DNA of 64,000 bases from Escherichia phage EP_H11, in sequence record OP688485; one strand, written 5' to 3'. The notes below the pieces were generated by a model. That model did no database searches. It saw nothing but the letters and a program-made list of their open reading frames with translations, and had not been told where the DNA came from. A program made the position numbers and the translations under genes. Every line of letters begins with the position of its first letter. Within the stretch, counting starts at the first letter, position 1. Shown here piece after piece: positions 4,831-8,670 of this stretch.

Positions 4831-5640
4831 ATGTACTTTACTGATAATATGATCGTGGGACTGATGATTGCTTATATCATCGGTGGGATCATTGTTTATC
4901 CGATTGCTGCCTACGTAACTGGCAGATTTCGCATTAAGCATGGCGGTTACACAGTATTGGCTACGGTATTTTGGCCGTTAATTCCTTTCGTGGTCGTGGC
5001 AGTTATCATAACTAAACTGGTTGAAATAGCGTGCACGAAAGGGACTACCTCCGCGATCTCGGTGAGAAACATGCCAATTAATTTCAGCATGCAGAGTCTT
5101 GAAGACTTTGTACCGGAGCATGGTAAGAACGTAGTAGTCTTCTATCACGAACGATTCTATTCACGAGTAGAGATGCTCCAAATGCAGGTAGAATTCCACT
5201 ACCAGATGATAGATGGAGATGGTTGCCCAGTTCCTCAGTGGGCATGCTATGATAATCGCGACGACATACCGTTCGATAAGCCATTCATCTGGAAAGATAA
5301 GCAGGTTAAGTTCCTTACTCTGGATGACTGTATGGAAATACATAATCTTCATCCCAAGCATCATTACCGCTACTGGTGGGTTAAGGACTGGTTCCTAACT
5401 GGTGGAGGAAATAGCCAGTTAAATAGGGAACAGCTGGCGGAGATGTCGTTAGGGATTATGAGTGCCGAACAGTTTAGTGCTGAACTGGATAAAGGATGTG
5501 CTGATCTGGAAGCTAAACGTATCTTGCGTGAATTAACTCGTGAATCCAGCACTGGATACTGCGAGAAGCATGCTACTCGCCAGTTGGGTAAAGACCTATG
5601 CGATGTATGTCGTATTGAACGTGCATTTATGGAGGGATGA
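4831..5640 (+). CDS. membrane-anchored protein
   Basis: Two N-terminal hydrophobic helices followed by a ~200-aa soluble Cys-containing domain; 269 aa. Confidence 0.5.
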   Translation: MYFTDNMIVGLMIAYIIGGIIVYPIAAYVTGRFRIKHGGYTVLATVFWPLIPFVVVAVIITKLVEIACTKGTTSAISVRNMPINFSMQSLEDFVPEHGKNVVVFYHERFYSRVEMLQMQVEFHYQMIDGDGCPVPQWACYDNRDDIPFDKPFIWKDKQVKFLTLDDCMEIHNLHPKHHYRYWWVKDWFLTGGGNSQLNREQLAEMSLGIMSAEQFSAELDKGCADLEAKRILRELTRESSTGYCEKHATRQLGKDLCDVCRIERAFMEG

Positions 5641-6296
5641 TGCGAATCTGGACCGAGGAGAACTCTATTCTGGAGTTTAGTGGAGAGTACCGATTCCTCT
5701 CTAACTTTTATCCTATTCCTATCGAGGATAAGAATCCATATGGGAACGAGACTCTTCCTTCCCTTACTTACCCCAGTCTGGAGCATGCCTATCAAGCATC
5801 TAAGTCTCCATCACTAGCTCATCGTCTTATAATAGCTAGACTCCATACTCCTGGGGAGGCTAAGAGATACGGACGTAAGCTATCCATTACCGAATCGTGG
5901 AAGGAACAGCGAGTAGATGTAATGGAACACCTACTCCGGATTAAATTCGCGAAAGGTGGGGAGCTAGCTCAAAAATTGATCGATACTTGGCCTAAGGAAC
6001 TGGTCGAAGGAAATACCCACGGAGACTCTTTCTGGGGTATGACTCGTGAGGAATACAAGTCCGTCCTTACGGGTATTAACATGCTTGGACGACTATTGAT
6101 GAAACTTCGGGAGGAGTTAATTATGGAACAAATGACTAAGAAGACAGGATCGTTTGAGGAGTGGCATAAATTGCTGCACCAATACGCTCAGTCTCGTGGT
6201 GGTAGCGCTGCGGACGCCGAGGCTTGGCGGGATGATTACGATGAAGGTAAGACTCCTAAGCAGGCCTACGACGATGAGTGGGGCGAAGAAGACTAA
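5637..6296 (+). CDS. NADAR (YbiA-like, DUF1768) protein
   Basis: YRFLSNFYP and LEHAYQASK motifs typical of the NADAR family; acidic C-terminal tail. Confidence 0.75.
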   Translation: MMRIWTEENSILEFSGEYRFLSNFYPIPIEDKNPYGNETLPSLTYPSLEHAYQASKSPSLAHRLIIARLHTPGEAKRYGRKLSITESWKEQRVDVMEHLLRIKFAKGGELAQKLIDTWPKELVEGNTHGDSFWGMTREEYKSVLTGINMLGRLLMKLREELIMEQMTKKTGSFEEWHKLLHQYAQSRGGSAADAEAWRDDYDEGKTPKQAYDDEWGEED

Positions 6297-6304
6297 CCTA
6301 TCTT

Positions 6305-6334
6305 AGCGCTCTTTAGGGAGCGCTATTTTTATTT
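6305..6334 (+). terminator. Rho-independent terminator
   Basis: AGCGCTC-TTTAGG-GAGCGCT hairpin followed by ATTTTTATTT, directly after the NADAR stop. Confidence 0.6.
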
Positions 6335-6350
6335 AACGTTGGGAGTAATT

Positions 6351-6590
6351 ATGGATCAGCCTATCCAAACAGTAATTAACGCAGTTGGGAGCATGCAGAT
6401 CGTGGGTTATGATACCTATGAGCAAGTAGCTCAAACAGTTAAACTTGATCCTCGCAAGAAGCGTCGTGGTCATCGTCAGGCAGCTAAGAGTTTGCTGCGT
6501 AATGGTGGGCTCTTCAATAACTACTCCTCACCAGGAACTACATTCTGGTGGGTTGCACAATGGCATCTTAAGAAGGCACGTAATGGTTGA
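6351..6590 (+). CDS. hypothetical protein
   Basis: ATG after GGGAG; ORF track start 6339 is TTG. Confidence 0.45.
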   Translation: MDQPIQTVINAVGSMQIVGYDTYEQVAQTVKLDPRKKRRGHRQAAKSLLRNGGLFNNYSSPGTTFWWVAQWHLKKARNG

Positions 6591-6936
6591 AGATACTGGA
6601 ATTCATGACGGACGCTGGGAAGAGCGATATAACTCCGTACGGCAGGAGCTCGACACTACTAAGGCTAATCTGAGTAAGGCAAGAGTAGAGAATGCCGAAA
6701 ACCGAGCTATGCATCACCGTATTATTCAGATGGCTATTGATGATGGCTGGACGGGTGATCATAATAGTAATGTTGAGGATGCAGTAAAATTCCTCTCTGG
6801 TAGAGAGCGTAAAGTAACTGCTCCTAAAGTACATTATACAGATCATATCACCGTAGGTAAGCCTTCCCCAGTGTATGATGCTGTTGAAGTAGATACATTA
6901 TTAACCAGCCTAGGATACATTGTGGATAAGGATTAA
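6586..6936 (+). CDS. hypothetical protein
   Basis: ATG overlapping upstream stop (ATGGTTGA); ORF track 6445..6936 is a 5'-extended version. Confidence 0.4.
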   Translation, partial: VEDTGIHDGRWEERYNSVRQELDTTKANLSKARVENAENRAMHHRIIQMAIDDGWTGDHNSNVEDAVKFLSGRERKVTAPKVHYTDHITVGKPSPVYDAVEVDTLLTSLGYIVDKD

Positions 6937-6938
6937 TT

Positions 6939-6973
6939 CCGCCGTTTCTTACCCTCGAAAGGCTGTTAAATTG
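6939..6973 (+). promoter_or_regulatory. conserved promoter-like element, copy 3
   Basis: CCGCCGTTTCTTACCCTCGAAAGGCTGTTAAATTG, ~28 nt upstream of ORF 7001. Confidence 0.5.
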
Positions 6974-7000
6974 TTGCACCTCAACTAATAAGGATAACCG

Positions 7001-7714
7001 ATGTCTACTAAGATGATGCCACACCATCTGGCACCGAATAAACTGTTTAACCGATTCCTGTCATATCATGACTCCTATCACTGCGCAATCGACATCGAGA
7101 CTGAGTATCTCGATTTTAAAGAGCCTGGGGTAGTTCTGTCTGTAGGTATGGTAACGATCGGTCCAGAGCATTACTCCCACGTTTATTTTACTATTGATCG
7201 TGAAGAATCTCTGGCATTGGGTATGAAGTCCGACCCTAAAGTAGTGGAGTGGCTCAATACCCTCCCGAAACCCGTCCGTGATGCCGCATATGCTAATCCG
7301 GTATCTGTTGACGAAGCTCTGGATATCATCGAGGATTACGTAGCTAAGGTATTACAGGACACTGGCTGCGAGATGTTGAACTTTATCGGTAACGCACCGG
7401 AGTTCGACCAAGGATTCCTGGATTGGTACTTTAAGGCCAAAGGGCGTAAGACTCCGTTCCTTCACTGGATGAATCGTGACTTCCGCACTCTGGCTAGTCT
7501 GCAGCTAATCTCTTTCGATGAACGCCGCATGATTAAAGAAGAACTGCGTAGCCAGCACGAATCTATGTCTGACCACCATGCTCTGTTTGATGCTATGCTG
7601 GAAGCTAAGACCTGGGTTCGCACCATCAACCGAGTAAAAGAACTGCAGGATCTGGAGCATGAAGTAAACACCATGATCGCTCTGCAGGGTAATTCTGTTG
7701 AGGATGAAGAGTAA
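7001..7714 (+). CDS. DEDDh 3'-5' exonuclease (DnaQ/RNase T-like)
   Basis: Exo motif I CAIDIETEY and motif III HHALFDAM. Confidence 0.7.
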   Translation: MSTKMMPHHLAPNKLFNRFLSYHDSYHCAIDIETEYLDFKEPGVVLSVGMVTIGPEHYSHVYFTIDREESLALGMKSDPKVVEWLNTLPKPVRDAAYANPVSVDEALDIIEDYVAKVLQDTGCEMLNFIGNAPEFDQGFLDWYFKAKGRKTPFLHWMNRDFRTLASLQLISFDERRMIKEELRSQHESMSDHHALFDAMLEAKTWVRTINRVKELQDLEHEVNTMIALQGNSVEDEE

Positions 7715-8027
7715 GCTCTGCCGCGTAGTTAATATACGTACCAATCCTAATTATGATCTGTATGTTGGGAGAGGTACGTTATTCGGGAATAAGTGGAGCC
7801 ATAAAGATTTACCTAACGCTATCAATGTAGGTTCCCGAACATTAGCTATCGCGAAATACCGACTATGGTTCCACCAGCAAGTAAAAGATGGCCATATAAG
7901 CATCTCATACCTGCGGACTCTGAAGGGTAAGACTCTGGGATGCTCCTGCTTACCATTACCATGTCATGCTCAAGTAATAGCTGACTTCGTTAATTCATTA
8001 CCAGACGAAGACTCCGCTCTTTCGTAG
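7698..8027 (+). CDS. DUF4326-like small Cys/His protein (tentative)
   Basis: YVGRG...FGNKW then LKGKTLGCSCLPLPCHAQVI; family assignment from memory, not searched. Confidence 0.45.
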   Translation: MRMKSKLCRVVNIRTNPNYDLYVGRGTLFGNKWSHKDLPNAINVGSRTLAIAKYRLWFHQQVKDGHISISYLRTLKGKTLGCSCLPLPCHAQVIADFVNSLPDEDSALS

Positions 8028-8048
8028 CCTCCAAAGGCTGTTAAACTG
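8024..8048 (+). promoter_or_regulatory. conserved promoter-like element, copy 4
   Basis: CCGCTCTTTCGTAGCCTCCAAAGGCTGTTAAACTG; overlaps the stop of the upstream ORF; feeds ORF 8066. Confidence 0.5.
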
Positions 8049-8065
8049 TTGGAAAGGAAATCTTT

Positions 8066-8290
8066 ATGCAATCACGTCGTGTTGGTTTGTTAAGCGGTAT
8101 CGGTATGGTTCTGGCTGGATTAGGTCGTATGTGGCCTACCCCAGCAGTGTCTATTAAAGGCCATGACGGATTCCGTAGCGCCTATACCAAGGTAAGTTGC
8201 CCTAAGACTACCACAGCATCTGCATTAAAGCGTGCGGCTAAGAAGGCTAAAGGCCGTAAGATTAATAAGCAACGTCACAAGGGTAAATAA
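8066..8290 (+). CDS. small basic protein with N-terminal hydrophobic segment
   Basis: 74 aa; LLSGIGMVLAGLG then Lys/Arg-rich tail. Confidence 0.4.
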   Translation: MQSRRVGLLSGIGMVLAGLGRMWPTPAVSIKGHDGFRSAYTKVSCPKTTTASALKRAAKKAKGRKINKQRHKGK

Positions 8291-8670
8291 TGTCACATAT
8301 GACCCGAGAAGAAATCGTATTGATGGTGGCTAAGGTGTGTCATGAAGCTAATCGTGCATACTGCCACTCTATCGGAGACTTCACCCAGTTAAGCTGGGAA
8401 GCAACATCCGATGAAATTAAACAGTCGGCTATTGATGGAGCGTATAACTGTCTGCACAATAACCGCATCAGTCCAGAAGAATCCCACGAATTCTGGGTTA
8501 AAACTAAGAAGGAGCAAGGCTGGAAGTATGGGGAAATCAAGGATCTCGCAGCTAAGACGCACCCGTGTATGGTTCCATATTCACGGTTGCCGGAAGAGCA
8601 CCGAGTCAAAGATCACCTCTTCACCAGCATCTGCGCAGCATTCATTAAACAGTATAAAAGGGCATCATGA
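8290..8670 (+). CDS. RyR-domain protein
   Basis: [32 protein letters not shown] matches the RyR-domain signature (W-G-YG...K-HPC-VPY-LPEE-K-D). Confidence 0.5.

Follow-up and report, generated by a model that had tools for sequence, protein, structure and literature searches.

NADAR proteins cleave guanine-linked ADP-ribose and act as DarT1 antitoxins (PMC11543638), and the use of a phage NADAR against DarT is an idea already published: the orphan phage NADARs AdfN (T4 gp30.3), NADAR-Bas32 and NADAR-Bas60 counter DarTG1 (Johannesman et al., 2024; PMC11257639). NADAR-Bas32, the product of bas32_0066 of phage Bas32 (IrisVonRoten, MZ501075), neutralises DarT1 and rescues the plating of DarTG1-sensitive phages (PMC11257639). 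A second family, RyDEP, consists of phage RyR-domain defence-evasion proteins, which bind or cleave the Thoeris signals 2' and 3' cyclic ADP-ribose (2'cADPR and 3'cADPR; Lopez Rivera et al., 2026 preprint, PMC13232231; PDB 35TM). A third family, DUF4326, has been predicted to process ADP-ribose derivatives, on the grounds of its fusions with SLOG, Macro and NADAR domains (Iyer, Burroughs and Aravind, 2021/2022; PMC7824862, PMC9503650). Members of all three are encoded in Escherichia phage EP_H11 (OP688485), in the 64-kb stretch analysed here (the window) of a genome of roughly 111 kb; coordinates are positions in the window. The NADAR, DUF4326 and RyR genes lie on one strand and span no more than 3 kb, within a region from about 500 to 12,000 where every gene is on the + strand.

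How should this combination be read? The reading we favour, at a probability of about 0.6, is that of an accessory island of early or middle genes in a rare Escherichia coli phage lineage, where independent NAD/ADP-ribose counter-defence genes are interleaved with genes of deoxynucleoside triphosphate (dNTP) metabolism. The genes would be transcribed separately and each would act alone against a different immunity system based on NAD+ or ADP-ribose, not in one pathway. The NADAR, by homology, would strip the ADP-ribose put by DarT1-type toxins on guanines of the phage DNA, such that replication continues. The RyR (R12) protein, as a dimer, would hold the Thoeris messengers 2'cADPR and 3'cADPR in a pocket comprising H66, W69, H91 and D108, and would either sequester them or hydrolyse the ribose-ribose bond, leaving the Thoeris effector untriggered. 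The DUF4326 protein, translationally coupled to a DEDDh exonuclease, would be an uncharacterised enzyme, and it is the weakest step of the proposal. The locus is not a single ADP-ribosylation-reversal system. Its two well-supported components, NADAR and RyR, belong to families already described, and it therefore adds a new example and no new kind of system.

DarTG1 and Thoeris both occur in E. coli, and this little-studied phage lineage therefore probably holds adjacent answers to both. The lineage is sparsely represented: among 50,697 phage records, the sole near match to positions 5000–9500 is Escherichia phage vB_EcoM_IME392 (116 kb), which is 92.6% identical over the full length of this segment. 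The locus is a convenient natural test case, as it offers a YbiA-type NADAR distinct from T4 AdfN together with a minimal RyDEP of 126 residues.

The NADAR protein and its fused tail

The open reading frame (ORF) at 5637–6296 encodes 219 residues and holds EYRFLSNFYP and LEHAYQASK, and with them the YRFLSNFYP and EHAYQASK motifs cited for NADAR in the initial annotation, which was made from the sequence without database searches. Domains were called with Pfam at its curated cut-offs, and this check places the NADAR, DUF4326 and RyR assignments of that annotation all well above them. For NADAR, the PF08719 match (E 7.4e-27, 95 bits against a cut-off of 35.1) runs from residue 17 to 161 and takes up profile positions 9–162 of 163. 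Matches among solved structures are YbiA of E. coli (2b3w, E 5e-14) and PnNADAR of Phytophthora (8bau, E 3e-11), and a BLASTP comparison with NADAR-Bas32 gives 44% identity over 154 residues (E 1e-31). Residues E49, K56, E124, D130, W133 and R158 do not vary across 38 aligned relatives. The E49-x6-K56 pair is equivalent to E36 and K43 of AdfN, where mutation of the pair abolishes function (PMC11257639); E124, D130 and W133 are equivalent to E125, D130 and W133 of PnNADAR, which, with E43 and K50, are its catalytic or ADP-ribose-contacting residues (PMC11543638). The identity to a tested anti-DarTG1 protein and the retention of the catalytic residues bear out the anti-DarT reading given to this gene at first, to the extent that homology can: the protein can plausibly be added to the Bas32-like group, as anti-DarT1 by homology, and is a predicted AdfN-like guanine-ADP-ribose DNA glycohydrolase.

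To which NADAR clade does it belong? The position equivalent to PnNADAR E125 is Glu in the YbiA subfamily, Asp in the DarG1/BC4488 clade and His in the T4 AdfN clade (PMC11543638). The window protein has Glu124 here, in place of the His of T4 AdfN and of the Asp of the DarG1 clade; PF08719 is the only Pfam family it matches, with no match to PF08010, the family of the T4 AdfN clade. It is an orphan of the YbiA type, as neighbouring ORFs show no DarT or ADP-ribosyltransferase family in Pfam, PHROG or PADLOC; no PADLOC model of DarG matched, and the only match is a weak one to PDC-M42C.

The NADAR assignment of the ORF holds for residues 1–162 (5637..6122) and fails for the last 57, which belong to a separate family. 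These form an acidic tail fused in frame (residues 163–219; 6123..6296), and residues 157–219 match phrog_519 with E 7.6e-20. On sequence grounds the tail is an independent small-protein family and not a part of the NADAR domain. It is preceded by its own strong Shine-Dalgarno sequence (GGGAGGAG) and an ATG, and tail homologues are found in 197 phage records, among which are Stx2 phages and Kuttervirus; one is annotated as DUF5419. An independent cluster (P0152) also has the fused form, at 218 residues. The NADAR and the tail are split in IME392 by an in-frame stop behind residue 155, which leaves the tail as a separate ORF (L001, 6374–6568) and the NADAR without the invariant R158; the truncated NADAR resembles the truncated, inactive AdfN of RB69 (PMC11257639).

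Immediately upstream of NADAR is an ORF of 269 residues with a hydrophobic N-terminus (4831..5640), which has no Pfam or PHROG family and is conserved in IME392 and in a further relative, L004. This ORF is intact in the window and is split into ORFs of 84 and 193 residues in IME392 (L001, 5099–5912). The split ORF and the in-frame stop in NADAR, taken together, suggest that the IME392 record has frameshift or nonsense differences, or sequencing errors, in the NADAR region.

The RyR-domain protein

The gene at 8290..8670 encodes a stand-alone RyR/R12-domain protein of 126 residues. The PF02026 match (E 5.8e-13, 49.3 bits against a cut-off of 27.4) is accompanied by a match to the RyDEP structure 35TM (35tm_A, E 6.6e-12) and by 32% identity to gp78 of phage DyoEdafos in BLASTP (E 4e-17). 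Residues H66, W69, H91 and D108 align with H75, W78, H100 and D117 of gp78 and are invariant in a family alignment of 38 sequences. In gp78, H75 and D117 form the catalytic dyad, W78 stacks on the adenine and H100 touches the phosphates (PMC13232231). The AlphaFold2 model of the protein (predicted local distance difference test score, pLDDT, 96.2) has a four-helix fold; a Foldseek search of a library without 35TM relates it, with probability 1.00, to a Bacteroides (Bt) RyR chimera (6uhi, E 2.5e-5) and to the R12 domain of human RyR3, and these are the structural relatives reported for RyDEP in the preprint. The best 120 relatives are nearly all stand-alone proteins of 110–130 residues.

What might such a protein act on? 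RyR had been set down in the initial annotation as a domain of unknown function, a description overtaken by the characterisation of the RyDEP family (PMC13232231). The same annotation placed the gene in a counter-defence against ADP-ribosylation; the NAD/ADP-ribose theme of that proposal survives and its mechanism does not, as RyDEP acts on a diffusible signal. Membership in the RyDEP family and the presence of all four ligand-binding or catalytic residues make it likely that the target is a signalling molecule and not ADP-ribosylated DNA.

The protein is a predicted sponge or glycosidase of 2'cADPR and 3'cADPR. Six of eight tested phage RyR homologues bind the cADPR signals, and only the DyoEdafos enzyme cleaves them; a tested sponge, H7, is a Pectobacterium phage protein (PMC13232231). 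Most tested homologues being sponges, and the window protein being closer to its Pectobacterium phage homologues (41–45% identity), sequestration appears by analogy somewhat more likely than hydrolysis.

A stand-alone RyR gene is also found in an unrelated viral contig of 106 kb (JGI 3300085340; L021, 1400–7167), 3 kb from a gene of the Sequestin family. The neighbourhood has in addition a weak AcrVA2-like match, and is an anti-defence neighbourhood.

Putative transcription units and conservation of the cluster

The terminator that had been placed between NADAR and the downstream genes is present at 6304..6335, as a 9-bp stem with five GC pairs and a 4-nucleotide loop followed by TTTTTATTTA. 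The suggestion attached to it, that NADAR is expressed as its own unit, does not hold, because the NADAR ATG overlaps the TGA of the 269-residue ORF (ATGA, 5637–5640). The terminator closes an upstream unit in which NADAR comes last.

Downstream, the genes are preceded by copies of a conserved AAAGGCTGTTAAAYTGT intergenic motif of about 40 nucleotides, CCGCTCTTT-N8-10-TCGAAAGGCTGTTAAAYTGTNG, of which the window has eight copies against 0.01 expected by chance (2846, 6958, 8033, 50114, 51138, 51925, 53627 and 56085, each with about 25 nucleotides upstream). The motif is found on the + strand only, is confined to blocks of + strand genes and usually stands 15–35 nucleotides before a start codon. 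One copy (CCGC..TTT-N-TCGAAAGGCTGTTAAAYTGTTG; 6934..6976) is 25 nucleotides upstream of the exonuclease start, and another (8009..8051) is 15 nucleotides upstream of an ORF of 74 residues, here orf74. Could the motif act as a structured RNA? Its hairpin is weak (7 bp, -2.9 kcal/mol) and shows no compensatory changes, and this candidate was rejected. Since there is no convincing RNA structure, and since the motif carries an extended -10-like element, TGTTAAAYT, it is probably a phage-specific promoter. A scan for sigma-70 promoters stays overall at the level of chance (17 found, 15.7 expected), as does a terminator scan (5 and 4.5), and the evidence on terminators is limited to two strong hairpins. 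One is that after NADAR; a terminator-like hairpin with a 12-bp stem and a T-rich tail lies at 9167..9204.

The N-terminus encoded by orf74 (8066..8290) is hydrophobic, and the C-terminus, rich in Lys and Arg, is very basic. The stop of orf74 overlaps the RyR start, the two genes being translationally coupled. IME392 and a diverged relative, contig L003, both retain orf74; no family match was obtained for it in Pfam, PHROG or PADLOC. The RyR stop in turn overlaps (ATGA) the start of a dUTPase gene (8667..9137; Pfam E 2.4e-35; 185.8 bits to the NCBIfam dUTP diphosphatase), and the unit of orf74, RyR and dUTPase, chained by these start/stop overlaps, ends at the 9167 hairpin. The terminator after NADAR, the motif copies before the exonuclease and before orf74, and the gene overlaps would thus place the NADAR, DUF4326 and RyR genes in three putative transcription units.

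Is the cluster a conserved module? Within the lineage, synteny is kept in IME392 and in the diverged contig L003, where the order is exonuclease, DUF4326, an ORF, RyR, dUTPase, an ORF and DCD. Outside it, no partner genes are present at three unrelated NADAR loci and two unrelated RyR loci reached through the protein collection, or at four RyR loci from phage records. A larger sample consisted of 160 viral loci, 80 of RyR (1.20 Mb) and 80 of NADAR (1.40 Mb). The RyR loci include one with NADAR and one with DUF4326, and the NADAR loci two with RyR and two with DUF4326; overall there are three NADAR-RyR pairs and three pairs with DUF4326, each pair at no more than 2.5%, and none of the 160 loci has NADAR, RyR and DUF4326 together. 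Against a crude background drawn from the phage collection, the one pairing to exceed expectation, and mildly so, is RyR close to NADAR (2 observed, 0.18 expected, Poisson P about 0.015); DUF4326 shows no enrichment around NADAR or RyR. With co-localisation this rare, the idea of the cluster as a conserved module is not supported.

These observations bear on a further possibility, that of one coordinated pathway. ADP-ribose freed by NADAR from DNA and by the RyDEP from cADPR would be passed to DUF4326 and the exonuclease for breakdown or recycling, in analogy with the RyDEP that feeds NAD+ resynthesis by NARP1. The RyDEP of DyoEdafos does lie within a NARP1 operon and its product feeds NAD+ synthesis (PMC13232231), other viruses have DUF4326 in fusions with NADAR, Macro and SLOG, and the compact, one-strand arrangement of the genes with synteny kept in diverged relatives would fit such a pathway. 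A terminator and two promoter-like motifs nevertheless stand between the genes, and the rarity of pairs in the viral sample, along with the lack of DUF4326 enrichment over the rough background, speaks against it. NARP1-type NAD+-resynthesis genes, which the pathway would call for, are likewise missing from the 30 + strand ORFs scanned, in 64 kb of the roughly 111-kb genome, as are Macro and Nudix genes. We consider a coordinated pathway quite unlikely.

Two small overlapping ORFs follow NADAR (6351–6590, 79 residues, basic; 6583–6936, 117 residues); both are conserved in IME392 and have no Pfam, PHROG or PADLOC family. A dCTP deaminase-like protein is encoded at 9408..10031 (Pfam DCD, E 1.1e-23; TIGR02274, 82.7 bits, below the cut-off of 92.8). 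After it comes a Cys-rich ORF of 216 residues (10028–10678), which has no family match and is absent from the otherwise syntenic L003; it may be a lineage-specific insertion, e.g. a mobile or homing-type gene.

DUF4326, nucleotide metabolism and known systems

The DUF4326 protein, a predicted enzyme of the T4 NrdA.1 family, is encoded at 7704..8027 (PF14216, E 3.1e-17, 63.4 bits against a cut-off of 25), in a gene that overlaps the exonuclease gene by 11 nucleotides. The gene had been placed at 7698–8027; the gene itself stands and its start is to be moved, as ATG 7704 is most likely the start, not TTG 7698, and the same applies to IME392. Every family-invariant residue is retained (G28, N29, L73, C80, C82, C87 and H88; G-N ... 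C-x-C-x4-C-H), and the AlphaFold2 model has a pLDDT of 94.8. The family comprises 2549 cluster representatives at E of 1e-3 or less, with homologues in 2013 phage records; T4-like phages, where the annotation is NrdA.1, account for many of these. Among the 35 homologues of at least 150 residues, the partners are mSLOG (6), NADAR (2), Macro (2), other SLOG (2) and DNA methyltransferases (2), and the fusions behind the published prediction (PMC9503650, PMC7824862) are thus reproduced here. SLOG, the commonest of these partners, belongs to the predicted viral NAD/ADP-ribose network (Iyer, Burroughs and Aravind; PMC9503650). The window has a SLOG protein of its own, of the YpsA type (50486..50965, + strand; Pfam YpsA, E 8.9e-7, 29.5 bits against a cut-off of 27.7), whose gene is the second after a copy of the promoter-like motif.

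The neighbouring gene (7001..7714) encodes a 3'-5' exonuclease of the Rv2179c/RNase T type (PF16473, E 4.9e-19), with matches to phrog_255, 'exonuclease', and to RNase T (2f96, E 2.4e-4). In the alignment, HHALFD is the counterpart of the RNase T H-x4-D, which assigns the enzyme to the DEDDh type, and DIE is found near the N-terminus at residues 31–33; the first call, DEDDh exonuclease, is upheld by both the family and the motif. The role given to it in the reversal of ADP-ribosylation is not, as no association was found: no tie of the exonuclease to ADP-ribose came to light, and DUF4326-exonuclease fusions number zero among the 35 architectures. Might the whole cluster, exonuclease and RyR included, still reverse or repair DarT-type ADP-ribosylation of DNA, as the initial annotation had it? 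The homology of NADAR to tested anti-DarTG1 proteins and the proximity of the genes are consistent with this idea. The exonuclease family, however, has no association with NADAR beyond a single neighbour in a replication module, no fusion joins it to DUF4326, and RyDEP-family proteins have cyclic ADP-ribose signals as their targets instead of DNA adducts; such a cluster-wide repair function is very unlikely.

What, then, might DUF4326 do? Its recurrent fusions with SLOG, NADAR and Macro and its recurrent placement among genes of dNTP metabolism suggest a substrate that is a ribose-phosphate or derives from a nucleotide. It might, with the exonuclease, constitute a third and undescribed counter-defence, processing a ribose-phosphate remnant or an ADP-ribose-derived molecule beyond the reach of NADAR and RyDEP, at DNA ends or as a free nucleotide. 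This is speculative and, in our estimation, unlikely. If true, the locus would be a three-enzyme NAD/ADP-ribose anti-immunity island, and would lead straight to the function of a family that about 2000 sequenced phages carry, the T4 group (NrdA.1) among them. DUF4326 is the more useful lead of the locus, as a widespread family that here lies between NADAR and RyDEP and overlaps an exonuclease gene, a setting that supplies a concrete genetic context and narrows the substrates to be considered to a short list.

A role of DUF4326 in nucleotide metabolism is a live alternative. In T4-like phages the gene sits within the frd-td-nrdA-nrdB cluster, in the window it is close to the dUTPase and dCTP deaminase-like genes, and in an unrelated viral contig of 122 kb (IMGVR_UViG_3300033067_001743; L166, 9056–10414) DUF4326, dUTPase and NADAR are contiguous, an arrangement that echoes the cluster in the window.

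Several points weigh against the reading of the locus as an island of independent counter-defence genes. The NADAR is YbiA-type: the position that defines the subfamily is Glu, and the score to NCBIfam TIGR02464 is 73.6 bits, where the cut-off is 73.7. In favour of the anti-DarT reading, all four NADAR subtypes of one study hydrolysed guanine-linked ADP-ribose in vitro. Protection in vivo differed between subtypes; E. coli YbiA and T4 gp30.3 gave no protection against DarT1 in the one in-vivo assay (PMC11125620), and the in-vivo specificity of the window NADAR is therefore not deducible from sequence. Two of the eight tested RyR homologues did not bind the cADPR signals (PMC13232231), and the conserved residues do not separate sponge from glycosidase RyDEPs. 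No solved structure is detectably related to DUF4326, and its place in the nrd cluster of T4-like phages fits a plain role in nucleotide metabolism; as regards the rhodanese-phosphatase superfamily proposed for it, no fold or activity could be assigned from comparison of structures and profiles. The promoter function of the intergenic motif, finally, is one that we infer.

Could the region be a module of nucleotide metabolism and housekeeping, with no role in defence? The NADAR would then be a YbiA-like N-glycosidase that clears reactive riboflavin or nucleotide intermediates, DUF4326 would process nucleotides alongside the dUTPase, the exonuclease and the dCTP deaminase, and the RyR protein would bind an adenine nucleotide for regulation. 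The near-threshold score to TIGR02464, a family of riboflavin-intermediate N-glycosidases, and the YbiA-defining Glu are what such a NADAR would show; the adjacent dUTPase and dCTP deaminase-like genes, the frd-td-nrdA-nrdB setting and the contiguous DUF4326-dUTPase-NADAR contig would follow as well, and R12 domains bind ATP/ADP in RyR3 structures. Yet, of the relatives of the NADAR that have been tested by experiment, the closest is a phage protein that counters DarTG1; there is no riboflavin pathway in phages that would need protection; and phage RyR proteins act on Thoeris signals both in vitro and in vivo (PMC13232231). A purely metabolic module is on these grounds unlikely, and independent counter-defence genes set among genes of dNTP metabolism remain the preferred reading.

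How does the locus compare with described systems? Like AdfN, NADAR-Bas32 and NADAR-Bas60, the window NADAR stands alone, with no partner toxin, and like other orphan phage NADARs it keeps the E-x6-K pair and the C-terminal EGN..GD..WG and lies in an early/DNA-metabolism region. It differs from the T4 AdfN clade by Glu instead of His and by the lack of a PF08010 match, and from the orphan phage NADARs by the in-frame tail of 57 residues from another family. It shares the subfamily-defining Glu with E. coli YbiA and TIGR02464 and scores only 0.1 bit under the cut-off of the latter, but its context, unlike that of YbiA, is a phage without riboflavin genes; its scores of 99.8 bits to NADAR-Bas32 (BLASTP) and 55.6 bits to YbiA (phmmer) come from different programs. 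With DarG1, the antitoxin of DarTG1, it shares the superfamily and the predicted chemistry, and it departs from DarG1 in having no adjacent DarT gene, no clade Asp and no PADLOC DarG match.

The RyR protein is like RyDEP in being small, stand-alone and R12-like, in keeping the H/W/H/D residues and in its PF02026 match. It is unlike DyoEdafos gp78, the one proven glycosidase, in being only 32% identical to it and closer to the Pectobacterium phage homologues, and also in its setting, as it lies outside a NARP1 operon and is coupled to orf74 and the dUTPase gene. The DUF4326 protein, as in the networks of Iyer, Burroughs and Aravind, co-occurs in the genome with NADAR and SLOG.

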